Source of the DNA: Octopus vulgaris
Taxonomy: Eukaryota
Direction of reading: 5' to 3'
DNA: 64,000 bases
NCBI GenBank assembly: GCA_951406725.2
Contig: OX597814.1
Location: forward strand, 216,008,001-216,072,000
Made by a program: the position numbers and the translations under genes
Shown here: positions 24,524 through 60,875 of the stretch, one piece after another
How the letters are laid out: each line of letters starts with the position of its first letter
Numbering within the stretch: the first letter of the stretch is position 1
The notes under the pieces: model-generated
What the model saw: the letters and a program-made list of their open reading frames with translations, nothing else
Databases searched by the model: none
Told to the model about the DNA's origin: nothing

Positions 24524-27500
24524 GATCATCCCATAAATAATGTGATTTCTTTCATTCGCATGAACCAAAACTTAGAGGGGTATGGGATAAACTACCTGCA
24601 TCAACTTGCTATCAAAGCAGGTAGTAATTTTACCTTTTACTTATTCTTAGTGCAAGTTTTGAAGAGTGCAGTTCGATTTTAACAGTTATTTTTTCAAAGC
24701 TATAATGACAGAGGCAAAGGAGCATATTCGCCATATTTTGCTTTATGAGTTCAATAAAGGCAACAACACAATGGAAAGTGCAAGAAATATTGATGCAGTG
24801 GAAAATAATGTCAGAAGTGATGCTGTTGAGAATGATGAATGGATGTCAAATGAAGTGGTTTCAAGAGAAGGATAACTGGTAGCACTAAGCAGGTATAAAA
24901 TATGTGCAGACTTTTGTTACCAACAGAAGTAGAAGGTCTCTGAACATTCTCATGCTGGTTCTTTTTCTAGCAACTATACTTTCAGTACATCCACCTCCAC
25001 TGCTAATTAATCTACCTAAAGAGCAGAAGCAATCTGCTACCTCTAGGTACACTGTATGGAATTTCTACATACACCTTTTCTATATATTGAAGCGACTACA
25101 GTCCTGTCTGTTTGCCTACTTTGGTCTTTGCTAAGTTGACTCAGAGGCCCTTTCACATTATGCAACAAACACAATAACAATTCAACATAAACAAGGAATA
25201 ATATATAAACATATATGAAACACAATAATTTAAGCAAAATATAATTTAATTCAAAGACCTGGAAAGCATTTAAGGAAAGCAACCCATGTGGAGGGAGAAA
25301 TCAACTTAGCTAAGTCGAACCAGAATATCCCAACAATATTGACTTTCTGCCACTCATTCAAACTACTATATTCAAAGGTGCAACTGGACAAATTTACTAT
25401 TATCCCAAGGATGAAATATTCCACATCCTCTACAAAATTGCACATTAGTGGTTCATGGATAGCTCATGTGATTCTTTTGCTAGTGTTCTCTTGTATGGGT
25501 GTTGCACAAAATCAGAGCAGAGTCCATCTCCTCTTCATTCAACTTGCGGATGCTTAATTTTGTCTTCTTTTGGTGCACATGATGGTTCCATCAGTTCTTC
25601 TTTTGTTTCACAAAGAACTGTGAACTTCAATTGAGTGAATCTGGGGTGTGAGGGTGGTGGTGGTGGTGGTGGTGGATTCTCCTTATATGTTTCTCTTGTC
25701 TGTACTGTGTCTCCTTGTCACATCTCTTCTGGAAACTTGGTGCATCCAAAGGCACCCACAAGTATTTCTAAGGTTGTATGTGACATGTCGTACCCCACAT
25801 CATTTGGGTAATTAGTTTTAAGTTGTCACAGTTAATTATTGGAGTCTTTACGGTTAAGCGTGACATGAGGCTCAGCCTTCCAGCAGTAGAATTATTGCTT
25901 TGTGTTCTGAATTCATCATGGGTCATGGCCTTAGAATGGACTTGATGTTTTCATGGCCCATTAGGATTTATAAATTTATACTGACCCTTCCTGAGTAAGG
26001 TTACCTTTGCACTCTCTACTAACCCTATAAAGGTGACAACAGACGAGGGATCAAGGTCACTGTTGATGCTGTCATTGCTGTCGCTTTTGTGTCCCATTTG
26101 ACAATGCAATGCATTAAGGGCCCATGAGTGAATGTTTTTTTGCCCTCTTTCTACCTGCTCTCATGTCTCACCATTGGTCTTGAAGGTCAGGCAAATGGCA
26201 GCATAAGCTTTCTTCTGGTCAATGAATAAAATGTTGTTTCATACATTGGCTAATGCCTCTTTTAGTCATTGTTTTAAGGGCATGCAGAAAGCCCTTTCCT
26301 TTTTGTAAGGTAGAGGTACACTAGCTTCTACCTTGCCCACCACTCCTGAATAAGTTTTTCTCATAAGGAAACAAAATCACTTGTGACACAATTTTTCCCA
26401 TTCTCGGACCAAAACTTGTCCGTATTTAGAAGTTGTTGTTATTCTCACTATTAGCATTTTAATTGAGACCCTTTCTGTGTCCTGACACAACCTATGCCAG
26501 ATGTTAAACGATGCTGATGATTTTTTTGATTTCTTCTCAAAAATCTTTTTTTTTAACTTTATTTGCCTATTTTTTAAATATAATTTTAGAGGTGTTGTTC
26601 TTTGGATTTGTTGTTATTGTTGAGTACAAAACATGTCAAATTCAAAATGTTTAAAAACATACGAGGGTGAATCAAAAACTAATACCATTTATTGGGCTTC
26701 ATATATTTGTACCCCAATGTCAATTTGATGGCATGTGCTCCTCTCTAACTCAATAATAATGATGATGATGATGCTGATGGTGATGAGAAAAACTCTCCCT
26801 AGTTTCTTCCTAAATGATATTTAATATAAGAAAAAAAAAACAATTTACCTGATGTTACAGCTGAGCCATCTGCTGACATTTGTTGGAAATATTCTTTAAA
26901 TTTCTGTCAAAAGTAAGCAAATAATTCATTACAACTTAATGAAAAAATAATTAATTTCTGTTAATTACAATGCAATGTTTTAATTCATTGCTTCTATCAA
27001 AAATATTGTTTTAAATTAATATTTCCATTTATTGTATCATAGAATAACTTCCTATGATGAACAGGCTTTTGAATATTCTGTAGTTTGGGGAGGAATTTTT
27101 ACTTACAGAATAAAAGGAAATGAAATTTGCTTGTTTAAGTGACTAAAAAATTATTCATGGAATTGAAACTGGTATCAAGATTCCATGTTATGCCCAAACA
27201 CCAGCTTAATAATGACAAAGCTAATTTACTTTATTCTTCGTTATTTTCAAAACTAATTAAAACAAAAGAAGAATATTTGTGTTGAAATACTTTGGCTTGA
27301 TGTAAATTTGTAATCCTGAAATAGAAGCTGGAGATTTTGAAGCAGTTGTTCAAAATTGTAGTGATCCGACAACGGCGCGCGCTCGCGCACCCTCCATTTG
27401 TATTTCGCGCGTGTTGGTGCCTTTACCAAGGCACAGAAAGGAAGGGCCCTCTCGCGCATGCGCGAACCACCGGTAGCACGACCCTATTGCCTACGTAGCA

Positions 27501-30500: not shown

Positions 30501-32056
30501 GGCTAAGTTCAGAGAGCCCCTACCTCTGCTAGCAACAAAGGGCCTCTCTCAGTGAAAGGCAGATTTATGAAGCCTGTGTGTGAACAGCCATGCTACATGG
30601 CCGTGAAACATGGGCTATAACAGCCAAGGACATGTGTAGGCTTGAGAGAAATGAAGCCAGTATGCTTCGCTGGATGTGCAATGTCAGTGTGCATGTTCGA
30701 CAGAGTGTAAACATCTTGAGAAAAAACTTAACCATAAGAAGCATCAGATGTGGTGTGCAAGAGATACGACTGTGCTGGTATGGTCATGGGATACACATGG
30801 ACAAGGACAGCTGTGTGAAGAAGTGCCACACACTCTAACAGTGGAGGGAACCTGTGAAAGAGACAGACCCAGGAAGACATGGGATGAGGTGGTGAAGTAT
30901 GACCTTAGAACATTGAGCCTCACAGAGGTAACCAAGACCTTTGGCGATATGCTGTGTTTGAAATGCCTCATCAAGCCAAGTGAAATCATAGTTAGGCCTC
31001 ACAGAGACAGTGACAAGTGACTGAGAGCTTTGGTAATATAGCATGTTTAAGAAGACCTGTCAAACCAAGTGCGCTCATAGATGTGGTTGATGCCAGTATT
31101 GTGTAACAAGCACCCATGCCAGTGGCACGTAAAAAGCACTACTACACACTTGAAGGGGTTGGTGTTAGGAAGGGAATCCAGCCATAGAAACCATGCCAAA
31201 TCAGATTGGAATCTGGTGCAGCTCCCCAGTAAATGATGATGACGATGGTGGTGGGTGGTGGTGGTGATGATGGTGATAATGATGATGATGATGGTGATGA
31301 TGATGATGGAGGAGGAGGAAGAGGAGGAACATGATACAATGCACAACAAATACGTCAACCAACCTTTACTATTTCTGTGTCTTTAGGGAAAACAACAAAG
31401 TAAACATCTTTGATATTAGCGGAATTTGGAGCTGACTCTTTGACTGCTTCATACATAGTTCCAGGTAGTTTTTCAATGGGATAATTCAATACTCCAGCTC
31501 CTAATATAGGAAATGCAAGGCTTTCTGCCCCGAGACATGAAGCATTTGCTAGACAAGAGTATACCATGCGAGTCAAGTTTTGCAATATCTGAAAAAATAA
31601 TTGTTTAGTAATTGATAATTAACATTTTATTAAATTATTTTCTTATTACAGGAAGAAATCATTAAGTTGTAATGAAAATATTCTTTCAGTTCTATATTTA
31701 AGAGAGGAGGAATTATGTACATTATTAACATTTGACAGATATTTGTCCTCATCTTGTTTGTTGTTAACAATGTTTCGGCTGATATACCCTCCAGCCTTCA
31801 TCAGGTGTCTTGGGGAAATTTCAAACCTGGGTTCTCATTCCTAAAGTATTTTTCGTTATTGTTGTTATTATTACTATTATAATTATTATTGTTGTTGTTG
31901 TTGGTGTTGTCATCGTTGTTGTTGTTGTTCAGGTCACTGCTTGGAATCGAACTGAGAATTTTGGTGTTAATAGCCTGCACTCTTAACCACTATGCCATAT
32001 GCCCGTGGACTACTAACCCTAAGATTCCGAGTTTGATTCCAAGCAGTGACCTGAAC

Positions 32057-32090
<34 letters not shown>

Positions 32091-35000
32091 TTAACATTGA
32101 AAAATACCTTAGGAATAAGAACGCAGGTTCAAAATTTCCCCAAGACATGATGAAGGCTGGAAGGTATATCAGCCGAAACGTTGTGTTAACAATAAACAAG
32201 ATGAGGACAAAAATCCATCAAATGTAAATAATGAATATATTCTTTGATCAACACATTGCACATGGAATTTGTTGTTTCAACCAGAAATGTTTTACAGATT
32301 CAAATAACATTAAACAACTTCTAGTGATTATTGGATTAACAGATCATGTGGTCATTGGATTAACACATCATTTGACAGAAGGATCAACACAGATCATGTG
32401 ATAGCAGGAAGTCTGGTCTGAGTGAAGATATGGATGCTGTGAATGGAAAGAGAAATGTTCCAAGATTTGGCGGTTGCACAGTGTAATTCAGGTGGAATTT
32501 TGTAATTAACAAAAACAATAATAGGGAAGAGGAGAGATTAATTATTATTTACAAGAGGGAAATCTGGGTGAGAACATACTGCAAGAAGCAACAAAACCAC
32601 CCACAAGGCAGGGTGCCACAGGCACAAAAGACTCTACACTGCACACAAGAGACTATGGTTGAGTCGAAATGTTCAGGGAATATCTACAATAGAGTCTACA
32701 TCAATTTCAAACAACCAGAATTCATGCTTTGGAAATTGTACAGAATACCACAACACCAGACTGTCACACTGTAGCCCATACTGTACGTCACTGGACATCA
32801 AAGTACATGCTTCTGTCTTGAAGCAGACGGAAGTGTTGTATGACTGGAAAAACACATCTGTGGATTGTGCATAGTTTTATGGACAATTCCGTTCATGCCA
32901 CAGGGATGCTGGATCAATGATAACCTAGGGTTGTACAACAACTCTTTCAATAAATCAATATAATATGATTGATACTTACTGAATCAGAGGAATTTTCATC
33001 CCAGGAAGGTAATGCCAGATGAAATACATTCTTACATTTGAGGTTATATCCTTTAGTGATGGCTATTTTAGATGTAGAAATACCTTGAGGATAATTCTGG
33101 TTACATTCAACTTGTATCTCTGGACCAGCAGCATTGAGAATAAATTTGGAGATAGAACCATCATTAAGCTGGAGGTGTTCATTGGTGCTGTTAACGATGA
33201 CATCAACCTACAAAAGTAATTAATGGTAAACAACTAAGGAACATTCCATGGAGAGAAGAGAGATACATTGTTGCAGTTGATATTGTTGTTAAGAAAGGCT
33301 CTACAGAATGGCTGTAGTAAGTTTGAGGTTGTTAAAGTTAGCAAAAGATTTACTCAAGATATCAGATGTGAAGGAAATGAAATGTTTGAGTTAGATTGAG
33401 AAAATGTTTTAATTAACTGTAATGATTCCTCATTTGGAAATGAAATAACAATTAAATATAAATATGTTAAGTGAATCTATTTACTCACAGATACATTAGA
33501 AATTGAACCAATCATTAAGTTTATTTTAATGCCAGCATTTTCTCCGGATGCCACATTAGTTCTGGGTATGATAGAGACTGTTTTCAGTTGTGGACCAGGA
33601 AAGGATGGGCTTGATAATTTAGTTTCTGGAAATAAACAAATATCAGTGTGTCATCATTATGACCATCATCATCGTTCAACATCTACCTTCCATGCTGGCA
33701 TGGGTTGGATCATTTGACAGGAACTTGCCAGGTAGAAGATGGCACCAGACCTCTATGTCTGTTTTGGCATGTACAGAAGTCTGGTGCAGTTTTCCACCTG
33801 GCCACACACCTACTGATGCAAGTTGAACAAAATGACATATAAAGACACATCCATCATAGCAAAAGTGAGGTCCTAAATGCATTGTGCTTATTCCTGTCCA
33901 TATTGGGCCCTACACTGACATTTGCCCATGTCAACCATACCCTTCACCACATCTCATTTTCCTAACACCCATCCCTCCATTACACTTCTAACTATGGCCC
34001 TACTTTGTTGCTGTAAGCATTTGAGAGCAGAATCTGCACAACACTTCTCACCCCTTTTCATTAATACCAGTTGCCTCTCTTTCATCATCATCATCATCTC
34101 CGTTCGTACAACCTTCCATTGATCATCCCTTTTTGCCCCTTCCCTAATCTTTCCCTTCCCACTCCTAGCTACATCTTAGTTTGCCATTCTTGATGTTTAA
34201 CACTTCTATATGCATTTATTCCCAACGCCCTCTCACATCCGTTATCAATACTCCCTCCAATTTTGTCTCCCCACTCACTATAGCCATCCTCATGTATCTC
34301 TAACTCCCATCTCTGTCCCAGTTGATCATCATCATCAACCCATCCCTTCCACTGTCACATCCTGTGCATCATCTCTGTACTTCCTTGTCTATGAATTTAT
34401 GATTCTGCTGCTCTCCTCTGCTACTCCTACGTTGCTACTTGTCACTCCCTCCTACCCAAACCTCATCTAACTCTCACTTGCCCCACTCCATACAGATATT
34501 TGCCATCAACTCCACCCCAAACCATTGTTCCTCACTCACTACATCCACCTCTAGCCCCATCACTAACCATCTGCCACGCCTCTCATCCCATATTCTTATG
34601 AAATTACCCTCTCTTTCTTACCTTCCTCATCCACATTCTATATTCTCTCCCCATACACACATCCTTGCAAACTGAGAGTATGCACTTGCACCCTATGACC
34701 ACCATCTTTCTCCCTTCCAGCTACTTTCATTCACTTTTGTAAAAAATATAAGCAAGTCGTGAATTTCCCCCATATCAAGACACCCCTACTTGACCCTCTA
34801 TCAAATCTCTCCTACCCCGGATATAAAGCCACCTACCCGTCTCCCAAATTCACTCCCACCCACTTTCACAGGGCTCTTTCCATTCTTCACTTTCTATTAC
34901 AAGTTACTTGGTGACCTCACTAGCACTGGGGTCATGGAAAAAGCAGCTTCCGGTCCACACTGTAAAGTGCTTGGTATTAAGAAGGGCAGCCAGCCATGGA

Positions 35001-38000: not shown

Positions 38001-38549
38001 ACAATACAATGTATGTAGCCCTTAAAACGGTTTTTGTGTATTTACACAGGATCTTGTTTTTAAGAATTCCTAATAAGTTATGAATACCTAAATTGTGAAG
38101 TCAGTTATATAATAACATGAAATTAATTACCCAATAGTAAGAATTCAAATAAAGTAGCCCCGAAAAGGGCTTTAATATGTTCCCAGAGTTTATAGAACTT
38201 AGGAGGAAATACTAATAAGTTATGTATACTAAAATTGTGAAGCATGTTATGTAATAACAGGCTACTCAGATATGAGATAATAACACTTCAAAGTAAATAA
38301 CTCTGAAAAATGCTTTTGTGCATTCACAGGAACTATTACCCTCAGTGGTGCTAGTGTTGTTAAATTCATGAATAACTCACTAACCGAAATAGGTGGATCT
38401 ATTGTTTAGGTAAATACTATTTACTTGTTTAAGCGTTGTACTGGATAAACTGTGAAAATAACTCAAATAGTTCAATTACTAAGAAATAAGCATACTCAAT
38501 TTGATTTATACCAAATAACTTATGAACATGAATGGGTTATTTCCCTTGG

Positions 38550-47800: not shown

Positions 47801-50800
47801 TTGCTACTTGTCACCCCCTCCTACCCAAACCTCATCTAACTCTCACTTGCCCCACTCCATACAGATATTTGCCATCAACTCCACCCCAAACCATTGTTCC
47901 TCACTCACTACATCCACCTCTAGCCCTATCACTAACCATCTGCCACTCCTCTCATCCCATATTCTTATGAAATTACCCTCTCTTTCTTACCTTCCTCATC
48001 CACATTCTATATTCTCTCCCCATACACACATCCTTGCAAACTGAGTGTATGCACTTGCACCCTATGACCACCATCTTTCTCCCTTCCAGCTACTTTCATT
48101 CACTTTTGTAAAAAATATAAGCAAGTCGTGAATTTCCCCCATATCAAGACACCCCTACTTGACCCTCTATCAAACCTCTCCTACCCCGGATATAAAGCCA
48201 CCTACCCGTCTCCCAAATTCTCCCTATCACTCTCTACTTGATGTTATAATCCATGGCATTTTTCTTCAATAACCATATGTGTCTAGCCAGGGTTGTGGCA
48301 TTATGTCTCTCCTGGACATTAATGGAAATTTTTAGGATTGTTAAATATGGTTCTGAAAGGACCTTTTGTCATACCCACATATTTCCACATATTCTTCTGC
48401 TTGCTAAAGTAATAGTCAAGTGATACTGAATGGAAATAAGTACAAGTTTTCACTGTATAATATGCTGAATAGTAATACAAAGACAGTTCATAATTACTGA
48501 GAAAAAAATTAATAGAAACAATGAAAATGTCTTCTCACAAAACTGACTGACACAGCTTTGAGAAGCACCGTAGGTTGTTCTAAGCAGAAAAAGAAAAGTG
48601 AGAACATCTGTGAAGTATCAGGCTCATTCTGTCTAGAAATGCAAAATAAGAATTTTTATAATGCCCAGCAGGGTTTTCCAAAAAACGTTTGACCAGACTA
48701 TTTGGTGGGAAAATTCCATTGCCCTTGGTTGTACATCAGCTGATCTGATTGGCCAAGCCATGTTCACAGAGGTGTTAGCGCCTTTCATAGTGGCATGATT
48801 TATTTTCCATAACTGGTTTTCCTTTGCTGACAATATGGTTCCATGCTGAAGAACCTGAGTGTGATGGTTCAAAACTCAGTAGGAGCCTAGCTATAAACTT
48901 TCAATTAATGAGGTAATGAATCAGCTCATTAAGTATGATAATAACTATTAATTAATTTAATATTTACAATCAGATTACATTTATGGTTCTTTTTCCTAAA
49001 GTAATAATTGGATGTAACTTATGTTGTATCATCACACATGAGATGGTCATGGAAGACTACATTGATGAGTTAACTCCCCTCTCATAAGACATTGAAGAGT
49101 TAACTCCCCTCTCAAAAGACGTTATTTTGGTTTATTGCAAGATGGTATTTTAGAATAATTTCTTCATCACAAAGTCCAAAGCTCTTCTCTTCAATTAGAA
49201 ATTATAATGTTCAAGATAGTCTTTTAATAAGAATTACAACCAATTAGAATCAATATCAAGTTTATATTTTTTGGTTAGATTTTATGAGGCTTGGTTCAAT
49301 TCTAAATCTAATATTTTTATTCAGTTTACATACTTTAACCCTCTTAAAGTCTTGTATTATAGATATCTGAACCTATTAGCAAATCCTAATCCAAATGGTA
49401 CTGTAGTTCCCAGAATGCTGTTGCTTGGGAGTGCAAAACTGGAAGCAAGCAATCTTCTGTGCAAGAAACAAAGTTTAGTCTTATTTCTGAAAGAACTTTC
49501 TGTGAAATGAATAAAAAAAAAGAGGATCAAGCATGTAATAGGAGAGAAGGACAAGGATGAAATGCAAAGATATCATGTCAGACAGATTGAAGAGGAACGT
49601 CTGCATGGCCAATTCTGGAGAGTCACTAAAGACATATTGTGGAACAAAATCCTGGGCTTGGTTAAAAAGGGGCCAATTAAAAAAAGAAACAGAGAGCCTA
49701 ATTGTAACAGTCCAAGATCAAGCGATAAAAACAAACAACTTGAGTAAAAATATATATGGAGAGAATGTGTCAGAAAAATGTAGAGCCTGTGGAACTTGGA
49801 ATGAGTCAGTGGCACACATCGTGGAAGAATGCCCCAAGTTGGCACAGGAAGAATATAAGAAACGGAGGCACGACCAGGTTGTAAAAGTTTTACACTGGAA
49901 ACTGTGCCAGAAATGGGGATTTGAAGCTGGAAACACAAAGCACAATCATTGAGTCAAAAGAGAATTGGAGTTGGAGAAATGTAAGATTTTATGGGACTTT
50001 CCTATTCAAATGGAGAAAAAGTTAGAAAACAATAGACTAGATATTACAGTCATAGATAAGGAAAAGAGAAGCTGCTTACTTATCGACCCATCATGTCTGT
50101 TTGATTCCAGGATCGTAAAGAGGAAGAAAAAGAAAGTAAATACAATCCCTTAAAATTTGAAATAGGAAGAATTTGGAGCATGCAAACAGTAAAGGTGGTG
50201 CCTATAATAATTGGTGTGTTGGGAACAGGAGGCCAAAATATAGACAAATGGCTGAAGGATATTGAAATAGAATACCCGGTAGAGCTTCTACAGAAAGTTT
50301 GTCTTTTAGGTACAGCAAGGATTATCAGGAGGGTTGTAAGCACTTGAAAGACTGCTAAAAACTTGTGGCTACCTGAGGCTGCAGGTAGTAACTTGCTATC
50401 AACATAATTCCTTGCAGAAATAAAACCAAAATAGTAATTATCAGTAATGTTTAACATAGAATGACATGACAAGACACCGTAATATTCAATATTAACAAAC
50501 AAGTTTTTTACCTCTGTTTCGGAGATATTCATCAAATTCCTGTAAAAACAAAAAAGAATCAATTTATATTTTTATTTTCCCATTTTTGCAAAGAGAAGAG
50601 ATTTAATTTAACAAAAACAAAATATTAGAAATATTTAATGATTTATTTCTACTCTGTAATAAGGAAATGAGGAAAATTACTTTGTCACTCAGATCAAAGA
50701 TATTCTATCCATGGCCTTCCTGCCTTTTGGGAGACATGAGACCTGTGTCAATATGGTAATACAGTGAATAGAGCAGAAAAACCTCCCATGCTTTACATGG

Positions 50801-53800
50801 CCACCAACATGGTGTTAGTGAAGTTAAACATGTGGTAATGGTGTCTTCATGTAGCTGAAGTTCTACTGTTTTTTTCTATCCAGTTACCATCATGGTTAGA
50901 ACCGTTGAACCTTGTGTTTGCAGTCAAAATGTCTATCAAGAATGTTGAATTTGAGGCGTTTTTGTTACATCCTGTTTGTCCAAAGCTATTTCAGGAACAA
51001 ACAGGAGTACAAGGTAATTATTTTTACATTGTAAGGAAGAATGAGAGGAAACCTGACAATTCAGACCGTGGTCCTTCATAACAAAGAAAAGAGAAAAGAT
51101 TCAAAGAGAAAAAGGTTCTCAAACAATTCTACAGTGGACAGAAATTTCCTTCATTTTTTTGTTACAGTGGAAAGGCATAAATATTATATTTTGGTATTAA
51201 TACTGCTATTATATTATTATTTTTAATAGACCTTCTGGCTATTAATTATCTTTAATAGACCTTCTGGCTATTAATTACTATCTGATGTACCCAGTAATTC
51301 CCAGGAAAGCAGGGCTTATTCCTTGGTTTCATTCTCATAATTGTTTCACTAATCCAGTAACAACAATACAATGTATGTAGCCCTTAAAACGGTTTTTGTG
51401 TATTTACACAGGATCTTGTTTTTAAGAATTCCTAATAAGTTATGAATACCCAAATTGTGAAGTCAGTTATATAATAACATGAAATTAATTACCCAATAGT
51501 AAGAATTCAAATAAAGTAGCCCTGAACAGGGCTTTAACCCCTTACCCGGCAGAAACGAATATATGCGTTTTGACCGAAATCGTTTTTTTCTATCTCTGGC
51601 GAGTTAACTCGTCAAAAGATAGACTCGCCAAAATCAACAGCAAACGAGTTCCTTTGTCTATTATAAACTCTCATTTGACATATACGAGTATATTCGCTCA
51701 CTTTATACGACTGGCAGTGATGATTTCTGCCACCTTTCGCTTGAGTAAGGCATTGAAGACCGAGTATGATTTAGTCACCTGGAGACAGTCGAAGGGTTGG
51801 AAGGCACATTTTATGAATAGAAGTATTCACTTTGTTTTTACGTTGTTTTTTTTTATACCTTTATATTATAACCCCACCATGTCGAGCTCTGATGATGATA
51901 ATTCATTATTTTGTCTCTCTTTTTTGTCATTACTAACAGTTTTGAAGTAATAAAATCAACAGAAGTAAACAATCATGTTTTGATCATTCATTCTAAATTT
52001 GGAAAATAAGATAACCAAATAAAATAACATGATTTTTTGTAAAAGTAATATGATTTATGAAAAAAACAGGTTAACTCGTTTCTGCCCAAAGCGGTAATTT
52101 AAAATCAATATTATTGAATTAAAATTCATAATAAATAAGGTTTGAAATATACCTTGAAATCACCATTCAAAACATAGTAAAATAAAACAATTAAAAAATA
52201 TGTCTGAAAAAATACATTCATTTTCAAAATAATTGTTGGGTAAGGGGTTAATATGTTCCCAGAGTTTATAGAACTTATTAGGAAATACTAATAAGTTATG
52301 TATACTAAAATTGTGAAGCATGTTATGTAATAACAGGCTAATCAGATATGAGATAATAACACTTCAAAGTGAATAACTCTGAAAAAAGCATTTGTGCATT
52401 TACAGAGAATATTACCCTCAGTGGCGCTAGTGTTGTTAAATTCATGAATAAGTCACTAACTGAAATAGGTGGATCTATTGTTTAGGTAAATACTATTTAC
52501 TTGTTTAAGCATTGTACTGGATAAATTGTGAAAATAACTCAAATAGTTCAAATACTAAGAAATAAGCATACTCAATTTGATTTATACCAAATAACTTATG
52601 AACATGAATGGGTTATTTCCCTTGGCTATATTTATATATAAGGATCCCTTTCAGGAGCGAATGGGTTATTTCCCTTGGATGTTTAAAACTAATATATTAG
52701 TTATATGTAGTACTTATAAGAATCCCTTCCAAGGGCCCTATTATCGATTTTTCCAACAATCTAAGTATGTCACTAGTTTTCTAGACATAAATTTTACTCA
52801 CGTGTCAAGTTTCATCAAAATCGATAAAACGATGTAGGAGGAGTTAGATAACAACTCCACAAACAAACACACCCACAGATTTCCACATATGTAGTAGATT
52901 TTTTCTTAATAAATTTGCTGGCTATTAATTATCTTTATTAAGCCTTCTTGTTATTAAATATTTTTAATAAACCTTCTGGCTATTAATTATCTTTAATAAG
53001 TCTTCTGGCTATTAATTATTTTTTATAAGCCTTCTGGCAATTAATTATTTTTGATAAACCTTCTGGCTATTAATTATCTTTAATAAGCCTTCTGGCTATT
53101 AATTATCTTTACTAAGCCTTCTGGCTATTAATTATTTTTAATAAACCTTGTGGCTGTTAACTATTTTTAATAAACCTGCTGGTTAGTAATTATTCTTAAT
53201 AGACCTGGCTATTAATTATTTTTAGTAAACTTGCTGACTATTATTTATTTTTAATAAATTTGCTGGGTATTAATTATTTTAAATAAACCTTCTGGCTATT
53301 AGTTACCTTTAATATGCCTTGTGGTTATTAATTATTTTTGATAAACTTTCTGGCTATTAATTACCTTTAATAAGCCTTGTGGTTGGGCCTGGTGCAGCCT
53401 CCTGGCTTCCCAGACCTCGGTCGAACCATCCAACCCATGCTAGCATGGAAAGCAGAGGTTAAACGATGATGATGATGATGATGATGATGATAATGATAAA
53501 ATCTTCTGGCTTTTAATTATCTTTGTGACTACTGAGGACATGCACAAGCTTGCAAGGAATGAAGATGGTATGATCCGCTGGATGTGTAATGTCAGTGTGC
53601 ATGCACGACAGAGTGTTACTGCCTTGAGAGAAAAGTTGGACCTAAGAAGCATCAGATGTGGTGTGCAAGAGAGACGACTGCGCTGGTATGGTCATATGTT
53701 GCGTTTGGATGTGGACAGCTATGTGAAAAAGAGTCACACCCTAGCAAGAGAGGGAACCTGTGAAAGAAGTAGACCCAGGAAGACCTGGGATGAAGTGGTG

Positions 53801-56800
53801 AAGCACGACTTTCAAATGTGACTGAGACATTTGGAGATATGCTGTGCTTAAGAAGACCCGGCAATGCAAGTGAGACCATAAACATGATCTATGCCAGTGC
53901 AGTATTACCAGCCCATTTAAGAGTAACTTTCAATCATTGGGCAATAAACTGCACTTAGTAAGACCTGTTGAGGCAAGTGAAATCCTTGTCATGGCTGATA
54001 ACAGGACCACCTGATTGGCACCTGTGCCAGTGGTGTATAACAGGCATCATTTGAGCGTGATCATTGCCACTGCCACCTGACTGGCACTCGTGCTGGTAGC
54101 ATTCAAGCGTGGTTGATGCCAGTACCACCTGACTGGCTCCTGTGCTGGTGGCATGTAAAAAGCACCCACTACACTCTCGGAGTGGTTGGCGTTAGGAAGG
54201 GCATCCAGCTGTAGAAATTTTGCCAGATTAGATTGGAGCCTGGTGCAGCCTTCTGGCTTCCCAAACCTCAGTCAAACTGTCCAACCCATGACAGCGTGGA
54301 AAACGGATGTTAAACGACGATGATGATGATGAAACCTGTTTATTAATTAGCTTTAATAAACCTTCTGACAATTAATTATCTTTAATACGCCTTATGGCTA
54401 TTAATTATTTTTAAACTAGGAAACGCACCCATCCTTTGGACAGTTTAAGTTGCTTTGGTGTTATTTTTTCCCCAGTTACTTGAACTACCGAGAAGGTTTA
54501 TGAGTAGCACAGCAATCTATGTTTCCGATTAATCTAGGAACAGAAAATCAAATTGAAGGCTGGTTATTGTGGAGGTCGTTGCACTTTAATGATCATAGAA
54601 CATATGAGTTTGCAAGTGATGCAAAATAGAGCTACTGAAGTGTTTTGGGAGTAGATTACGGATAATGACTACAAAATATAGTTGTTTTTTAAGTATATTT
54701 TGTTCACTCTTATTTTCATGTATATCATATAAACATCTACATCTTTTGGAACATTGTCATTTTATAAGACTTTACTGGCAAATTTTTAAGTCAAAATTTA
54801 TTTATATGAAAGAAAACTATTGGTAACATAACACGAATTGGGCAGAGTTAAAGAATACACACACCATCCGTCTTCCATGTAATCCTAACCCTAAACCCTA
54901 AACCTAGCCCTAAACACTGGGTGTGCATATTATTTACCTTCACCCACATGTTGTTCTAAAAATTACAGTTAAATAAGATTTTTTGGATAAATCTTTTAAA
55001 CTAACATAAACTTTTATTTATGTAAAAACTAACATTTCATTTTCTGAGCTGAGATTCGAAACTGAATCTAAGGATTCTCGCTGACCTGATCCACCACTGG
55101 CCGAACAGGTGTGACAGAAATTTCTTTATCCTGTCAAAATGTGATGGATGGATTTCTAACCTGAGCTGTGTCACTGAAGGTTCAACTGGACAGCAGGTGA
55201 CCTAGATAAGTAGTAAGGACTCCAATTGTATGTCTGTTCTTCTTGCTAGGATGACCATTATAAATAGTTACCTTAGATACAGGACAGATAAGCAGGCAGC
55301 TTGCAACAGGTAAGCAGCCAACAGAGAGCCACATAGTCAGCATGAGCGAATTATGATAGCCAATGACACAGCACAGTAGCAGGACACAAAAAGATAGGAC
55401 AGAAAAACAACACAACTCAACCAAATGTCCAACGCACACACAGACACAAAATATGCCATGCACTCTTTCATCAAATCAACATTCTACTTCTCCTGTTGTT
55501 ATTTTTACTTTGCCACCCCAAAGCTGTTGGTAACTTCATGTAGCAGCCTTCATTGATATTGTAAATTAAACTTTGAGTATCCAACACGTAGATGCAAGTG
55601 TGGATCAAATAAATTATTTAAACTACATTCCTCATTGTTTTACTTTGATGTCGTCCTATCTCCATCGGCGACACCCGACAACATACATTGAACCATCAAC
55701 ATCACATTTCGCTGCCCATACTGCTACAATTTACATGAAAGAAAATTGCCATAAGAGGTAAGATGGAGAGAAGCTTCAGCTAGTGTCCTCACAGGCAAGG
55801 CACATAGATATAAAAATCTTCTGGGAAGGTAACATCGATGGAGTAGGGGTATGTGATAGAGTGCTTAAGCTCAGGCTAGTCTTGCAGAATAGTATAGCTA
55901 CAATTATCTCTGCCTATGCCCCCGCAAGTGGCCCTACCAAATGCTCTGAAGGACCATTTTTATGATACTCTCCTACAGGCTGCCTCAAAGACGAGTGGCA
56001 ATGACCTCATCTTTGCAGCTGGAGATTTTAATAGGTATGTTGGGTGGGAATCCGGTATCTTCACTGGTGTACAGGGGGGGGCATGCTATTGGTTCCTGAA
56101 AAGAAGATGGAACCAGGCTACTGGAGTTTTGTGATGCATGTAACCTTTTAATCTGCAACACTAACTTCAGGAAACCAGATAGCCACCTGATAACCTATCA
56201 ATCAGGTGACTCTGCTAGCCAGATTGATTTCATCCTCACCAGACAGCGGGACACAGGGTTGCTCTTAAATACAAAGACCCTCTCAGGTATGGAATGTACC
56301 CCCAGCATAGACTAGTCATTAGGGACTTTAGACTCGAGGCCAGAAGGATGCCAAGAAGCAGACCAATCCAGAAAAGAAGGATTTGGAAGCTAAAGAACCC
56401 TTCACATGGTCTGAGATTTAGGGATATCCTCATCAAGAAATTTGATGAGAGGGAGGAGGAGCTACAGTCTTCGGACATAGAAGGTAGCTGGAAATTCCTA
56501 CGAGACAGCTTACTGAGTGCCACAGACCAAGTCCACGGATGGAGCAAAGTCCCTTCCAGACCTAGAGTTATGTGGTGGTGGAATTATACAGTAGACAGAG
56601 CCATCAGGACAAAGAAACAGGCCTGGAAGGGTTGGGGTAGCAGGGAACAGTACCAAATAGCCAGAAAGGAGGCTAGGAGACAGGTATATATAGCCAAGGG
56701 TGAAGCAGAAGAGAAGAAGTTGCCAATGTCCAGCAACATAAAGACCAAAGAAATGAAGTATTTCGGATTGCAGCGTGTGAGAGAAAATTGTGATGTCACA

Positions 56801-59800
56801 GGAGAGAAATGTGTCCGCATGGATGATGGTGCACTTGCTTTTAATGATTCCGAAATGAAAGAGGTTTGGAGAAGCCATTATGAAAGACTGCTGAACGTGG
56901 AAAATGAATTGGAGGAGGAGAGCCAGCCAAATGTTGCCACAGTAGAGGGACCAGCTATCCGAATAGACAGCACCCTTGTAGATAAAGCAATTAAGGTTAT
57001 GAAGCCAGGAAAAGCCCCTGGCCCATCAGGAATCACTGCTGAGATGCTTAAAACATCTGGTGGTGTGGGCTATGGCCTAGTCACCTGCATTGTGAACCAG
57101 GTAGTTCATGATGGAGTCATACTGCTAGTTTTATTATATTCTTCACCAATTTCATGAACTAAAGTCCCTCTTTAAAGACATCACAAGATGGCAATGTCCT
57201 TCTGTGAAAGACGCTGTTCAAAAATACTAATATGCATTTTCATGTCTCAGATGTTTCTTTTATTTCAATGTTGGTTTACATTATTTTACTCAATTCTTCT
57301 TCCTTGAATATACACCAATTATGTCAATGCTGCAGCAGCAGCAAGTGAAGGCGCAATGGCCCAGTGGTTAGGGTAGTGGACTCGCGGTTTTGATTCCAAG
57401 GCCGTGCGTTGTGTGTGTTTATTGAGCGAAAACTCCTAAAGTTCCATGAGGCTCCGGCAGGGGTTGTGGCGACCCCTGTTGTACTCTTTCACCCCCAACT
57501 TTCTTTCAGTCTCTCTTCCTGTTTCTTGTCCCCGACTTGCTACGCAACCGCTGAGCCTGGATGCGCATTCATCCATCCATCGATGCTCTCGGTATTGGGG
57601 GTTGACCTGCTTTCTCTTCTGCGGGTCTTACGAATAGCAAAGGACCACGTTTCGGACTTCTCCCACTACAGAGGCGCGATCTTGCGAGCTCTGGGACAAA
57701 GACTGCTTCGCTCAACAAACAAACAAACAAAAGCAGCAGCAGCAGGCCACCACCACCAACCTTATATGGAATAGCATGAAATGTTGGAGAATGCAGTTGA
57801 CAGCTGGTGCATCAAGTATTAGGAGAGGTGAAAATCAAGAGAGGAATCTTCCAGGGGGGACAGCGTGTTCCCACTGATATTCATGCTGGGAATGATCCCC
57901 TTGAGAGAAATACTACAGGAAACAAAGTTCTGGTATTACAGTTCTATATTTAAGAGATGAGGAATTAAGTACATTATTTACATTATTTATATTTGATGGA
58001 TTTTTGTCCTCATCTTGTTTGTTGTTAAAACGTTTCGACTGATATACCCTCTAGCTTTTCATCAGGCATTTTGAGGAAATTTTGAACCTGGGTTCTCATA
58101 CCTAAGGTAGTTGTTGTTGTTATTGTTGTTCAGGTCACTGCTTGGAATCAAACTCGGAATCTTGGGGTTAGTAACCTAAAGCTATTCACTAAGACTGAGA
58201 AAGAAATTGAGAGCTTGATGGCAACTGTGCAGATGATTAGCAAAGATATTGGCATGGAAGTTGAGATCAAGAAATGTGGTGTAATGATTCTCAAAAGGGG
58301 GAGAAATCAGTAAAAGCCATGGGATCAAGCTGGAAAGTGATGAAACTATAAGGGAATTCAGAGAGGAAGAATATAGGTACCTGGGTATCATTGAAAGAGA
58401 TAAGATGAATAAACACGAGATCAAAGAAAAGTTAAGGAAAGAGTATTTGAAGGAAATTTGGCTTGTGCTCCAATTGAAGCTAAATGGCTGCAATAAGATT
58501 AGAGCAATTAACACATGGGCTGTTGCTTTGATGAGATATGGGGCAGGAATAGTATCTTGATAGAAGCATGAATTACAAGAGATAGACCGGAGAACATGTA
58601 AATTAATGACAATGAACAAGAAATTAGAACCCCAAGAGTGATGTGTCAAGGTTGTATGTAAAGGAGGAGGGAAGGACGACAGGGATTGGTATGTTGTGAA
58701 TGGTGTGTCAAGGAAGAGGAGAATAGCCTGGCTTGGTATGTCAAGGGGAATAAAGAAGAAAGGATTGAAGCAGTGAAAATGCAGGGAACCTTAAAAGTGA
58801 ACGCAGCCGTAGATCCAACACGATTTAAGGAAGACTAGAGAAATCAGATGAAGGAAATTTACTAGGACAAGAAAACGCACAGTCAGTTCTTGAAGAATAA
58901 GGATGAGATTAATTGGAATAGAACCTGGCAATGGCTGCAGAAAGGAGACTTAAAAGGGCCTACTGGAGGCATTAGTGTGCAACGCTCAAGAACAAGCTCT
59001 CAGAACAAACTCCTCTAAATATCACATTGATAAAAGCACTGACTTGCCACAGTGTAGGATGTGCTCTGAGAAGAGAGAAAGTATAAGAGAAAGCTGGTGC
59101 CACGTAAAAAGCACCCAGTACACTCTGTAAATTGGTTGGTGTTAGGAAGGGTATCTCAACTGCAGAATCCATACCAAAACAAAGAATGGAACCAGGTTTG
59201 GCTCCTTGCCTTGCCAGTTCCTGTCAAACTGTCCAACCCATGCCAGCATGGAAAACAGGTGATAAATAATGAGCATGATTCTAAGTTTTATTTTCATTTC
59301 TATTTCCTTTGTCTATTGCAGAATATTTTCTTTGTTTTGGTGAATTCCAAGAATATCAACATCAAACAACAAACAACAAATACATCAACCAACCTTTACT
59401 ATTTCTGTGTCTTTAGGATAAACCACAAAGTAAACATCTTTGATCTGGCTTGAATTTTGCTTTGAGTAGTTTTTCACTGCTTCATACATAGTTCTGGGTA
59501 GGTTTTCAATGGGGTACCTCAATTTTCCAGCCCCTAATATAGGAAATGCAAGGCTTTTTGCTCCTCTTCTCTCAGCTTTTCCCAGACAAATGGTTATTAT
59601 TTGAGTCAAGTTTGCCAGAGTCTAAAAAAAATAATTGTTTAGTAATTGATAATGAACATTTTATTAAATTATTTTCTTATTACAGGAAGAAACCATTAAG
59701 TTGTAATAAATATATCCTCCTCTCACAACTCCTCTCACTCCTGCCACTGCTAAACACAACTGTCATTCCTATCACTCTTTAGTCCTGCAAGGGACAAGGC

Positions 59801-60875
59801 AACCTCACTCATGATGCTGCTACAATAAAACAGACCCAATCCACCGTGTAAAATGGTTGGTGAATGAAGAGAGACAATGCAGACCCAAGAGGAGTCTTTA
59901 GTGTTGTTGAGGACATGACAACCTCTCTAGTGCTCGTGCCATGACAGAAAAACTCACCAATACAGACAGTAAAACACAGAAATATGTTTTAATATAGTCT
60001 TATTTATCAGTCACATAACTGTTGTTAGGCCATGAGGCTTTTTTCCTTCTATTTATATATAAAAGTGTCCTGTTCATCGATATCTTCTGCTTCCTTCCAA
60101 TGATAACTTGGAAGAACAAATATTAAACAGGATGCTGACATTTGCTTTATGATTCTCACACAACATGCATAAGGTTCTCTTCAAACATTAACTGTTTCAA
60201 TAAATCAAATACATATGAATAATACTTACTAAATGTGAGGAGTTTACACCCCAGGGAGGTAATGCCAGATGAAATACTTTCTTACAGTTGAGGTTATATC
60301 CTTTAGTTATGGCTACTTCAGACGTAGAAATACCTTGAGGATGTTTCTGGCTACATTCAGCTTGTATCTCTGGACCAGCAGCATTGAGAATAAATTTGGA
60401 GATAGAACCATCATTAAGCTGGAGGTGTTTATTGGTGCTGTTAACGATGACATCAACCTACAAAAGTAATTAATGGTAAACAGCTAAGGAACATTCCGTG
60501 GAGAGAAGAGAGATACATTGTTGCAGTTGATATTGTTGTTAAGTAAGGCTCTACAGAATGGCTGTAGTAAGTTTGCGGTTGTTAAAGTTAGCAAAAGATA
60601 TACTCAAGATATCAGATGTGAAGGAAATAAAATGTTTGAGTTTGATTGAGAAAATGTTTTAATTAACTGTAATGATTCCTCATTTGCAAATGAAATAACA
60701 ATTAAATATAAATATGTTAAGTGAATCTATTTACTCACAGATGCATTAGAAATTGAACCAATCATTAGTTGTATTTTGATGCCAGCATTTTCTCCGGATG
60801 CCACATTAGTTCTGGGTGTCATAGGGGGTGCTTTCTGTTGTGGACCAAGAAGGGATGAGTTTGATGATGTGGTTC
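1123..60875 (-). CDS. PARP14: PARP14-like macro-PARP, partial; 16 exons: 3x Macro, acidic linker, KH-like, WWE, ART N-terminal half
   Basis: Hand-spliced exons all have GT/AG ends and compatible phases, giving 2760 nt with no stop. The Macro-WWE-ART order and the motifs [19 protein letters not shown] and LWHGT...[10 protein letters not shown] match the PARP14 family. Exact orthology is not established. Confidence 0.9.
1567..1800 (-). mobile_element. 3' end of the abundant RTE-type LINE/SINE family with (ATG)n tail
   Basis: Shared terminus catcatcat..catgctggcatgggttgga..ctggatgcccttcc recurs many times in the window. Confidence 0.7.
2085..2218 (-). CDS. Start of ART domain (VTPDTWSPM...[22 protein letters not shown])
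   Basis: ctctag / gttagt, 134 nt, phase 1-0; P..W..M and EY...F pattern of mono-ART PARPs. Confidence 0.88.
2356..2440. repeat. Compound (GTA/GCA/GTG)n microsatellite, tail of the adjacent RTE LINE
   Basis: Visible triplet runs at the 3' end of the minus-strand element. Confidence 0.9.
2441..3560 (-). mobile_element. RTE-clade LINE, 5'-truncated (RT C-terminus + C2H2-like tail)
   Basis: ORF 2770..3594 has [21 protein letters not shown]...RIPKQMLYG; downstream frame reads [17 protein letters not shown]. Confidence 0.9.
3895..4108 (-). mobile_element. Mariner-family end fragment
   Basis: Reverse complement of 24520-24740 (terminus ttgg.tcatcccataaataat), abutting a (TA)n run. Confidence 0.7.
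4107..4195. repeat. (TA)n microsatellite
   Basis: Direct observation. Confidence 0.97.
4196..5820 (-). mobile_element. RTE-type LINE, degenerate RT + 3' UTR
   Basis: ORF 5413..5766 [13 protein letters not shown]...ELLYTDDL; family 3' terminus at about 4196. Confidence 0.88.
5900..7020 (+). mobile_element. Same RTE-type LINE family, opposite orientation, internally deleted
   Basis: gtaggggttcaccaaggatcagtc RT segment is the reverse complement of about 5660-5700; ends with a gatgatgat tail. Confidence 0.85.
7429..7798 (-). CDS. KH-like region + WWE domain (..[23 protein letters not shown]..)
   Basis: tttcag / gtacgt, 370 nt, phase 0-1; W...N..LE.AY pattern as in PARP14 WWE; ORF 7406..7675. 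Confidence 0.88.
8345..8985 (-). mobile_element. Penelope-like element, reverse-transcriptase relic
   Basis: Minus-strand translation: [58 protein letters not shown]; contains stops. Confidence 0.85.
9430..10260 (+). mobile_element. Penelope-like element, GIY-YIG endonuclease relic
   Basis: ORF 9707..9979 [26 protein letters not shown]; downstream PGGMN motif. Confidence 0.8.
10428..10590. repeat. (AAT)n microsatellite
   Basis: Direct observation; source of the poly-N/I/L ORFs. Confidence 0.97.
11705..12184 (+). mobile_element. CR1/L2-type LINE 3' fragment with poly(A)
   Basis: ORF 11692..12105 [32 protein letters not shown]; A-rich tail at about 12167-12184. Confidence 0.8.
12764..13015 (+). 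mobile_element. tRNA-derived SINE
   Basis: A-box tggcttagtga, B-box-like gtttcgattcc, then a CORE-like ttgtgttcttgagcaaaacactt segment; flanked by similar tattagctatt sequence. Confidence 0.75.
14150..15200 (+). mobile_element. RLE-type (R4/Dong-like) LINE, degenerate 3' part
   Basis: Translates to [42 protein letters not shown]; (AAT)n tail. Confidence 0.78.
15219..16872 (+). mobile_element. RLE-type (R4/Dong-like) LINE: RT C-terminus, CCHC finger, restriction-like endonuclease
   Basis: HLLYMDDLK; ORFs 15323, 15676, 16186 ([29 protein letters not shown]) and 16472 (KYKDL). Confidence 0.88.
16875..17328 (+). mobile_element. CR1-type LINE 3' fragment with (ATT/AAT)n tail
   Basis: ORF 16932..17225 [21 protein letters not shown]; second copy on the minus strand at about 35540-36020. 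Confidence 0.85.
17490..19420 (-). mobile_element. RTE-type LINE, internally deleted
   Basis: ORF 18211..18810 ([27 protein letters not shown]) plus the family 3' UTR. Confidence 0.85.
19475..20640 (-). mobile_element. RTE-type LINE 3' end with tandemly repeated 3' UTR units
   Basis: ORF 20276..20635 [17 protein letters not shown]; repeated gtg.ttttt(a)tgtgc.acc units. Confidence 0.85.
21586..21776 (-). CDS. Acidic linker + start of KH-like region ([12 protein letters not shown]...[21 protein letters not shown]...TESR)
   Basis: tttcag / gtaagt, 191 nt, phase 1-0; ORF 21511..21798. Confidence 0.85.
22146..22285. repeat. (CAT/CGT)n microsatellite, expanded LINE tail
   Basis: Direct observation. 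Confidence 0.92.
22286..23195. mobile_element. Two RTE-type 3' fragments in opposite orientation
   Basis: Minus-strand copy to about 22650 (tgggtctacctctacca), plus-strand copy after it (agaggtagacccagg). Confidence 0.75.
23205..23916 (+). mobile_element. Mariner transposase relic with 3' end
   Basis: Translates to [45 protein letters not shown]; ends ...gatcagaactcgTA. Confidence 0.88.
24170..24487 (+). mobile_element. RTE-family 3' UTR / SINE-like copy
   Basis: ggcatgtaaaaagcac units and the cggacgttaaacgatgatgat terminus. Confidence 0.75.
24520..24870 (+). mobile_element. Mariner 5' end with transposase N-terminus
   Basis: ORF 24666..24875 [23 protein letters not shown] (mariner HTH); terminus adjoins (TA)n. 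Confidence 0.8.
26849..26903 (-). CDS. Macro module 3, exon D ([18 protein letters not shown])
   Basis: tgacag / gtaaat, 55 nt, phase 0-1; resembles EFDEYL of the micro-exons and bridges phase to the next exon. Confidence 0.82.
27357..27660 (+). mobile_element. Solo LTR, 304 bp, probably Ty3/Gypsy
   Basis: TGTA...TACA ends, 4-bp target duplication AAAT (27353-56 and 27661-64), ATTAAA at about 27581, CpG-rich. Confidence 0.8.
27690..29550 (+). mobile_element. RLE-type (R4/Dong-like) LINE: RT + CCHC region
   Basis: ORFs 27986 ([16 protein letters not shown]), 28272 ([19 protein letters not shown]), 28674 and 28975. Confidence 0.9.
29655..31230 (+). mobile_element. RTE-type LINE, RT to 3' end
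   Basis: [31 protein letters not shown]; ORFs 30328 and 30590; (GAT/GGT)n tail. Confidence 0.87.
31364..31588 (-). CDS. Macro module 3, exon C (..[31 protein letters not shown])
   Basis: tttcag / gttggt, 225 nt; ORF 31355..31585. Confidence 0.92.
31764..31810 (-). ncRNA. Minimal type I hammerhead-ribozyme-like motif
   Basis: Minus strand reads AGACAC-CTGATGA-A-GGCTG-gagggtatat-CAGCC-GAAAC; stem III and cleavage side are degenerate in this copy. Confidence 0.6.
32143..32187 (+). ncRNA. Hammerhead-like motif, second copy
   Basis: agaca-TGATGA-A-GGCTG-gaaggtatat-CAGCC-GAAACGTT-GTGTT; lacks 2 nt at the stem I/C3 junction. Confidence 0.55.
32980..33207 (-). CDS. Macro module 3, exon B ([14 protein letters not shown]...[11 protein letters not shown])
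   Basis: ttgtag / gtaagt, 228 nt, open frame. Confidence 0.92.
33489..33625 (-). CDS. Macro module 3, exon A (..[28 protein letters not shown])
   Basis: ttccag / gtgagt, 137 nt, phase 1-0. Confidence 0.88.
35540..36020 (-). mobile_element. CR1-type LINE 3' fragment
   Basis: Reverse complement of about 16920-17290. Confidence 0.8.
36555..37060 (+). mobile_element. RLE-type LINE 3' end
   Basis: ORF 36600 [20 protein letters not shown]; a longer paralogue lies at 49520-50430. Confidence 0.8.
37147..37174 (-). CDS. Macro module 2, micro-exon D (EFDEYLRNR)
   Basis: taacag / gtaaaa, 28 nt, identical to 50512-50539. Confidence 0.82.
39075..39460. repeat. AT-rich ~30-bp minisatellite (aataaaccttctggctattaattatttt)
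   Basis: About a dozen degenerate units; further units at about 37860-37920 and 40420-40505. Confidence 0.85.
39600..40420 (+). mobile_element. RTE-type LINE 3' fragment
   Basis: ORF 39600..39896; duplicate at 53525-54330. Confidence 0.85.
41865..43222 (+). mobile_element. RTE-type LINE, APE endonuclease + linker
   Basis: [32 protein letters not shown]; duplicate at 55765-57120 (ORF 56294..57157). Confidence 0.88.
43449..43835 (+). mobile_element. tRNA-derived SINE with (CAAA)n tail
   Basis: tggcccagtggttaggg A-box and degenerate B-box; duplicate at about 57347-57732. Confidence 0.75.
43890..45200 (+). mobile_element. RLE-type LINE relic interrupted by a hammerhead-bearing repeat (44055-44290, minus)
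   Basis: KRGIFQG, YRYLGI, INTWAV; the insert matches 31686-31970; duplicate at about 57770-59085. Confidence 0.8.
45507..45734 (-). CDS. Macro module 2, exon C (..[30 protein letters not shown])
   Basis: ttttag / gttggt, 228 nt; ORF 45498..45722. Confidence 0.92.
46346..46573 (-). CDS. Macro module 2, exon B
   Basis: ttgtag / gtaagt, 228 nt, open frame [10 protein letters not shown]...WGVNSSHL. Confidence 0.92.
46855..46991 (-). CDS. Macro module 2, exon A (..[28 protein letters not shown])
   Basis: ttccag / gtgagt, 137 nt, phase 1-0. Confidence 0.88.
49520..50430 (+). mobile_element. RLE-type LINE: CCHC finger + endonuclease
   Basis: ORF 49557 [21 protein letters not shown]; ORF 49965. 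Confidence 0.85.
50512..50539 (-). CDS. Macro module 1, micro-exon D (EFDEYLRNR)
   Basis: Polypyrimidine tract + tacag acceptor, gtaaaa donor, 28 nt, phase 0-1; supplies the C-terminal helix and restores phase for exon A. Confidence 0.82.
51538..52247 (+). mobile_element. Non-autonomous piggyBac-like element, 710 bp
   Basis: TTAA duplicated at 51534-37 and 52248-51; TIR CCCCTTACCC / GGGTAAGGGG; empty site gggctttaatatg at about 38167-38179 in the other duplication unit. Confidence 0.92.
52905..53385. repeat. AT-rich ~30-bp minisatellite, longer paralogue of 39075-39460
   Basis: Same unit, different copy number. Confidence 0.85.
59394..59621 (-). CDS. Macro module 1, exon C (..[31 protein letters not shown])
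   Basis: ttttag acceptor, gttggt donor, 228 nt; SLAFP.LGAG diphosphate-binding loop; overlaps ORF 59385..59609. Confidence 0.92.
60230..60457 (-). CDS. Macro module 1, exon B ([35 protein letters not shown]...[11 protein letters not shown])
   Basis: ttgtag acceptor, gtaagt donor, 228 nt, phase 0-0; macrodomain core. The ORF track shows only the antisense ORF here. Confidence 0.92.
60739..60875 (-). CDS. Macro module 1, exon A (linker + first strand: ..[27 protein letters not shown])
   Basis: tttcag acceptor, gtgagt donor, 137 nt, phase 1-0; paralogous to 46855-46991 and 33489-33625. Confidence 0.88.

Follow-up and report, generated by a model that had tools for sequence, protein, structure and literature searches.

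A variable array of Macro2 domains in a PARP14-like gene family of Octopus vulgaris, with probable crossing-over and selection beside the ADP-ribose pocket

The PARP14-like gene described here, located on the minus strand of the window (the whole stretch of 64,000 nucleotides of Octopus vulgaris DNA that was analyzed), follows the order RRM–KH–Macro1–(Macro2)×3–KH/WWE-like–ART and belongs to a family in which the number of Macro2 domains differs among paralogs. Starting from the anatomy of the gene, the Macro2 class of its repeated domains, their copy numbers, the mosaicism of their sequences and an excess of amino-acid change, we consider it probable that this is a writer-eraser gene with a variable Macro2 array, whose number of readers would change by crossing-over and whose pocket would diversify, likely in the course of host-pathogen conflict.

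All 12 of the 12 cassette exons lie on the minus strand with AG/GT ends and, in cassettes 1/2/3, measure 137 nt (A), 228 nt (B), 228/228/225 nt (C) and 28/28/55 nt (D), with phases 1-0, 0-0, 0-0 and 0-1, respectively; spliced to exons E-H they read through 919 codons free of stops, thereby confirming the sizes, phases, threefold occurrence and open frames that the preliminary description had attributed to the cassette. With the addition of three upstream exons and the last exon, which are found beyond the window, the frame extends to 1663 aa with a single terminal stop. The exons within the window are the following:

60739..60875, minus strand: cassette 1 exon A, linker and first Macro2 strands (137 nt, phase 1-0)
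60230..60457, minus strand: cassette 1 exon B, N-terminal half of Macro2, loop 1 with the G1044-equivalent Gly (228 nt)
59394..59621, minus strand: cassette 1 exon C, C-terminal half of Macro2, loop 2 (228 nt)
50512..50539, minus strand: cassette 1 exon D, last helix and linker (28 nt, phase 0-1)
46855..46991, minus strand: cassette 2 exon A (96.4% to A3, 83.2% to A1)
46346..46573, minus strand: cassette 2 exon B (97.8% to B1)
45507..45734, minus strand: cassette 2 exon C (96.5% to C1)
37147..37174, minus strand: cassette 2 exon D (identical to D1)
33489..33625, minus strand: cassette 3 exon A
32980..33207, minus strand: cassette 3 exon B
31364..31588, minus strand: cassette 3 exon C, older terminal type (225 nt, 76-77% to C1/C2)
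26849..26903, minus strand: cassette 3 exon D (55 nt)
21586..21776, minus strand: exon E, acidic linker and start of the KH-like region
7429..7798, minus strand: exon F, KH-like region and WWE-like domain
2085..2218, minus strand: exon G, start of the ART domain
1123..1300, minus strand: exon H, ART domain with the catalytic His

The last ART exon is situated 1.9-2.2 kb past the window's start. The motifs DGSISKFIL and SLAFP.LGAG.L.YP are indeed present in 3/3 copies, although copy 3 reads FVVFP where FVVYP had been quoted; likewise, the count of three macrodomains holds for the cassettes in the window but omits a fourth, Macro1, upstream of it, the complete gene having four in the series 1-2-2-2 by type profiles. 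Among the introns, the one between F and G contains a 277-codon open frame (window 2773-3603, minus strand) that resembles a fragment of a LINE reverse transcriptase, and an intronic telomere-type hexamer is repeated 7.5 times at window 40971-41016.

The assignment of all three copies to the Macro2 type is borne out by trees, type profiles and PDB matches by sequence and by fold. In an IQ-TREE analysis of 90 domains, the octopus cassette domains (11/11) form one clade (100/100) inside the Macro2 group (98/84), apart from Macro1 (100/100) and outside a Macro3 group (99/94) that holds mollusc, lancelet and vertebrate members; FastTree on 267 domains, of which those 90 are a subset, places 73/73 octopus cassette domains likewise. 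The domains do not split among Macro1, Macro2 and Macro3, and this placement rejects the idea that the three copies correspond to the three types, just as the mollusc Macro3 clade rejects Macro3 as a vertebrate invention. Type profiles score the three cassettes at 175-193 bits as Macro2 versus 109-120 as Macro3, and when the window is scanned in six frames with Macro1/2/3 profiles, the six B/C exons are the sole matches, all scoring highest as Macro2, with no Macro3 remnant. The best solved (PDB) match by sequence is human PARP14 Macro2, and PARP14 Macro2 is also the best match by fold for a low-confidence AlphaFold model (pLDDT 58) of the proxy protein P0032, which served for the fold search alone. 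An equivalent of G1044, a residue of human PARP14 Macro2 described in the accessible part of PMC10499325 and located here via orangutan PARP14, is invariant in 49/49 distinct B exons, and the G-x-G of loop 2 is kept in all three cassettes of the window gene.

The window gene departs from the canonical Macro1-Macro2-Macro3 series. Its C-terminus aligns to positions 7-421 of the 422-position post-Macro3 profile, and because it fills that profile there is no Macro3 between cassette 3 and KH/WWE/ART, as the preliminary description had proposed and as the window profiles also indicate. Queried with a chiton Macro3, the genome gave no matches beyond the cassettes, the Macro1 exons and a single, unrelated macro exon on C14. 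On these sequence comparisons, Macro3 is ancestral in molluscs and has been lost from the window gene. A lone macrodomain exon at G000:C14:57,559,542-57,559,880 (L087) shares ~30-34% identity with PARP14 macrodomains, and no further PARP14 exon was found in the 80 kb analyzed around it.

Macro1 is located 2-22 kb upstream of the window, where the three upstream exons comprise a 1536-nt KH-region exon and two Macro1 exons; three RRM-region exons sit still further upstream, and those of the O. sinensis ortholog P0201 map to 91-98 kb in window numbering at 94-98% identity. RRM_PARP14_1 and RRM_PARP14_3 exceed the Pfam cut-off on P0201, while the KH repeats, below that cut-off, are placed by colinearity. 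Compared with the O. sinensis ortholog, RRM exon 2 (L013, ~91,370 in window numbering, upstream) is shifted in frame by 1 nt within an A-run, which is either an assembly error or a real loss-of-function lesion. The Macro1 of the window gene groups with the Macro1 clade at a support of 100/100 (IQ-TREE) and retains the loop-1 Asn/Gly and loop-2 Ile-Phe hydrolase motifs; the loop-2 aromatic is absent from the cassettes. The accessible part of PMC10221186 defines the hydrolase residues and describes an ancestral PARP14 with three macrodomains; judged by these residues, the predicted function is that of an eraser of ADP-ribose for Macro1 and that of a non-catalytic reader for each cassette. At the C-terminus, the post-Macro3 profile recognizes a PARP-type ART (E=3e-101 across residues 1268-1661), PF00644 is matched on P0201, and the alignment gives the triad His-Tyr-Ile, the domain being a predicted mono-ADP-ribosyl writer. 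The WWE-like region in exon F (Pfam WWE E=0.0055, 17.5 bits versus a cut-off of 21.1) is colinear in the family profile.

From the genome search, 51 of 60 B candidates, 51 of 55 C candidates, 17 of 18 ART candidates and 19 of 56 Macro1 candidates were accepted as exons of the family, located within four clusters, of which C1 has three and C29 one; these counts are lower bounds, and a PF00644 search, which missed the family, is not their basis. Of the runs, ordered by strand and position and with gene boundaries inferred, 17 are ART-linked and comprise 45 cassettes (a single cassette in one run, 2 in ten runs, 3 in three, 4 in two and 7 in one), and another three, in which no ART was detected, carry 6; the number of paralogs is put at about 17-20. 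Exons A, B and C are all open in 45/51 cassettes and exon B in 50/51; six of the 51, including the last of the seven-cassette run, are broken or have no detected exon A. The repeated cassettes are 80-98% identical, the runs of 3, 4 and 7 have mutually distinct exons, and the cassette exons of one paralog translate identically, as compared by eye, to the NCBI O. vulgaris model P0011. In the seven-cassette run, the exons for RRM, KH, Macro1 and ART are arranged in order, and the last A exon contains an extra base. In 15/49 C exons, e.g. L027-L044 (G000:C1:206.63-206.72 Mb), loop 2 has lost one residue and reads Gly-Ala-Glu-Met in place of Gly-x-Gly-x-Leu, a variant that may abolish ADP-ribose binding.

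Some further traits of these loci deserve mention. A degenerate exon A copy with a stop codon recurs in five units of the seven-cassette gene (G000:C1:206,649,895; 206,668,774; 206,683,189; 206,702,042; 206,717,144). Near-identical two-cassette genes ~0.97 Mb apart (L055/L056 and L061/L062; G000:C1:7.56-7.60 and 8.53-8.57 Mb) represent either a recent segmental duplication or redundant assembly. At G000:C1:216.28-216.33, 216.50-216.61 and 206.08 Mb, Macro1 exons occur three times ahead of one cassette run, and four Macro1 exons have no nearby cassette; the KH-Macro1 block, two of which are present in model P0022, may also expand.

Copy number is not invariant, in agreement with the variation that had been anticipated: it differs among paralogs and with respect to O. 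sinensis, whose models are automatic and may be alleles, paralogs or collapsed assemblies. The chromosomal model P0201 (XP_036356136) has two cassettes and matches the window gene at 95.9% in KH, 97.7% in Macro1 and 100% in D3-E, and P0199 and P0023, from small contigs, share that Macro1 and those terminal exons and contain a single cassette each; in O. bimaculoides model P0206, Macro1 is joined straight to exon E. Isoform models of one O. sinensis gene also vary in macrodomain number (P0002, P0004-P0007 and P0208, 6 versus 5; P0014 and P0026, 3 versus 2), hinting at cassette skipping or read mis-mapping. The claim that the amplification is lineage-specific does not hold in that form, extra Macro2 copies being present in sea star, snail and Argonauta database models as well. 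Of 250 non-octopus proteins, a set biased by the query toward Macro2-rich proteins, 153 read 1-2-3 and the remainder vary, with at most five Macro2 per protein in all those examined. The sea star Patiria miniata (XP_038071238) has a Macro1-2-2-2 plan like that of the octopus gene with copies 81-86% identical, and Babylonia P0108, Littorina P0102, Argonauta GAB1599116 and Glandiceps repeat Macro2, often without Macro3, as the octopus does. All of these, Patiria included, are automatic annotations; for Patiria, Argonauta and Glandiceps the domain types come from profiles alone, whereas the snail and bivalve Macro2 copies in the trees fall outside the octopus clade. Among the matches listed (120/1052; 20/150 looked up), none was named as coming from squid, cuttlefish or nautilus.

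The recent history of the window gene can be read from two long repeats that align colinearly:

46350..60740, no strand: tandem duplication unit 1 (intron A-B, B, C, D and the next A), mostly 95-99.8% to unit 2 in 400-bp windows
32980..46855, no strand: tandem duplication unit 2

Each spans ~13.9 kb; their identity is reported overall as 98–99%, and their introns diverge at 258/11456 sites (2.3%), bearing out that the amplification is recent. Since A2 resembles A3 whereas B2, C2 and D2 resemble B1, C1 and D1, the unit that was duplicated is B-C-D-A; the A-B-C-D cassette of the preliminary description consists of real exons but is not the DNA segment that was recently copied. The third copy thus likely arose from one recent ~13.9-kb tandem duplication, the overlap at 46350-46855 (intron A-B and exon B) being the likely crossover zone, and the B-C-D-A pattern is what a misaligned crossover at or close to exon B would be expected to leave in a gene with two cassettes. 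The symmetric phase, which had been proposed to keep changes of copy number in frame, is not needed once tandem copies exist, because crossover between them shifts a whole period and preserves the frame whatever the intron phases; 1-1 symmetry would matter instead for the first duplication, total loss and exon skipping. Cassette introns also contain AT-rich 29-bp satellite arrays whose copy number differs between units (window 37854-37915, 39076-39462, 40421-40506, 51205-51283, 52898-53382, 54342-54414), and insertions private to one unit (window 48655-49919, 51537-52248, 34851-36121) are possible markers for both units on one molecule.

It is unlikely, in our estimation, that the third cassette is an assembly mis-join of two two-cassette haplotypes over the shared intron A-B and exon B, in which case the family expansion would still be real. 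The 2.3% divergence of the unit introns is near the ~1% between the window and contigs of other runs (6/573, 5/394), A2-type and A3-type exons both precede the terminal C type in O. sinensis P0036 and P0010, and single-base indels in the gene family suggest assembly errors; however, the window contains no N, the shared stretch measures just ~0.5-0.7 kb, the same genome has the mutually distinct runs of 3, 4 and 7 cassettes, and O. sinensis P0001, P0002 and P0096 carry 5-6 macrodomains each.

Exchange and divergence were analyzed in the 49 of 51 cassettes with every segment recovered. Trees of adjacent exons share just 6-8/46 splits, their distances are nearly uncorrelated, and site incompatibility climbs from 0.13 to 0.58 with distance (permutation p=0.0005), which is the pattern expected from conversion. 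The p-distance among copies is 10.5% in exon B and 4.0% in intron A-B; in the first 250 nt of intron B-C the median is 3.2% and the mean 21.6%, because some copies differ wholesale. Within the seven-cassette run the corresponding values are 9.2% for exon B, 3.7% for intron A-B and 1.4% for the 5' part of intron B-C. Exon B differs by 11.3% at codon positions 1+2 and by 5.6% at four-fold sites. For exons G, H and Macro1, used as controls, flanks are as divergent as the exons themselves or more so, and low intron divergence as a general trait of these genes is thereby rejected.

Codon models (custom code rather than PAML, with fixed quick trees and NEB site calls) gave, for M2a versus M1a on 49 distinct B exons, an LRT of 143.5 with omega 5.1 on 29% of codons, compared to a maximum LRT of 15.8 in 12 neutral simulations, 8 of them on mosaic trees. 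Flagged codons 10, 11, 13, 15 and 16 form loop 1 just ahead of the invariant glycine, codons 22, 25, 29, 30, 33 and 41 fall on helices outside loop 1, and many B codons are invariant in 49/49 distinct sequences. Exons C, Macro1, G, H and A have LRTs of 10.7-27.3, values that the neutral simulations reach or nearly reach, and we therefore claim selection firmly for exon B only, where codon substitution argues for diversifying selection on the sequence encoding the ADP-ribose pocket loop; for exon I, an LRT of 36.7 on 10 sequences is suggestive. Pooled dN/dS of ~1 in most exons, and of ~1-1.6 in Macro1, ART and linker exons, indicates fast change across the gene, partly fitting relaxed constraint and counting against an account limited to the readers.

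The latter values, together with the upstream exon 2 frameshift and several broken cassettes, would also suit neutral birth-and-death in a repeat-rich region, with extra cassettes as tolerated passengers and the window copy maybe as a young pseudogene, an account that we find improbable given that 50/51 B exons remain open despite ~10% divergence, that so many B codons are fixed, that exon B diverges ~3× faster than its flanking introns and that 1663 open codons follow the exon 2 lesion. Even more doubtful is a role of the diversified surface in direct binding of proteins or nucleic acids from pathogens, or as a decoy, with ADP-ribose reading secondary or lost in part of the array, for although helix codons outside loop 1 are selected, the loop-2 Glu-Met variant occurs in 15/49 cassettes and direct viral antagonism has been proposed as a driver (accessible part of PMC4038475), the G1044-equivalent glycine never changes and the window gene's cassettes retain the loop-2 G-x-G.

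In contigs of runs guessed to be RNA, A-B joints have splice-site ends, B-C and C-D joins are of the paralog type, and a paralog linker is spliced to exon A. Four such runs yielded no D-to-A joint of the window gene and no cover of exon D, neither of which is informative on splicing, and no transcript carrying all three cassettes was seen in them. A PARP14-like protein was detected in the O. vulgaris skin mucus proteome (accessible part of PMC11431876). We found no infection or binding data for the octopus gene.

Taken together, a writer-eraser gene with a variable reader array could operate as follows, the crossover mechanism, binding, catalysis and immune role being what we infer. Reader number would likely change through unequal crossing-over between cassettes, the newest event likely being a misaligned exchange, at or next to exon B, between two chromosomes with two cassettes each; conversion across paralogs likely keeps the introns flanking exon B near-identical, and these introns would act as homology arms through which cassettes are gained, lost or swapped. 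The residues around the ADP-ribose pocket likely diverge under diversifying selection, with the fold and the key glycines kept constant. The protein would most likely write mono-ADP-ribose (ART), erase it (Macro1) and bind it via the Macro2 array, which would raise the avidity for ADP-ribosylated targets and vary the peptides preferred, host-pathogen conflict being the most likely setting. By analogy, the array is likely a variable immune sensor, a role suggested by vertebrate PARP14 biology (accessible parts of PMC4038475 and PMC13224862) and by the selection signal. A more ambitious version, which we advance tentatively as a possibility, is that of a germline-diversified repertoire of intracellular receptors, in which ~50 Macro2 cassettes swap a hypervariable pocket exon via conserved intron arms, vary in number between haplotypes and are mixed by cassette skipping, each paralog reading its own modified host or pathogen targets. 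For the writer-eraser reading with its variable array, the ~50 natural variants of one reader domain make it testable whether readers distinguish the protein that bears the ADP-ribose, and the genes constitute a candidate expanded defence family in cephalopods.

An exon that outpaces its flanking introns under conversion and diversifying selection is known from MHC peptide-binding exons, snake PLA2 and conotoxins; the octopus case differs in that an intracellular domain is repeated within an enzyme, and the likeness is an analogy only. PARP14 (ARTD8/BAL2) shares the RRM-KH-macrodomains-KH-WWE-ART order (with a WWE-like region in octopus) and a Macro1 with hydrolase motifs next to a Macro2 without them (accessible parts of PMC4038475, PMC10221186, PMC13224862 and PMC4245714), as well as the His-Tyr-hydrophobic ART triad and gene duplication with positive selection, both already known for PARP14 (PMC4038475 and PMC4245714, in part). 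The octopus gene differs from it by the absence of Macro3 and by Macro2 present 1-7 times as 80-98% identical cassettes, and the genome by at least 17 paralogs versus four in lancelet and six in sponge (PMC4245714, in part). Exon-scale exchange of cassettes is a probable octopus feature of which the accessible parts of PMC4038475, PMC10221186, PMC13224862 and PMC4245714 make no mention. PARP9 (Macro1+Macro2) and PARP15 (Macro2+Macro3) each carry part of the ancestral set of three macrodomains and are partial duplicates of vertebrates whose number of macrodomains is fixed at two (PMC10221186, in part); PARP9 lacks Macro3, like the octopus genes, which unlike both retain the RRM/KH N-terminus, a WWE-like region and the ART triad. 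At the level of listings, the literature searched gave no account of a PARP14 expansion in octopus, although octopus sequences may figure in the macroPARP list that supplements PMC10221186, and the accessible part of the preprint 10.64898/2026.04.23.720386 does not mention molluscs. While selection has been studied in vertebrates, with three macrodomains as the ancestral state (PMC4038475 and PMC10221186, in part), the octopus genome illustrates a second route, namely loss of Macro3, a Macro2 array of 1-7 and change concentrated beside the ADP-ribose pocket. Within a family that is itself known, what stands out here is the scale of the array, the youth of the events and the divergence of exon over intron.
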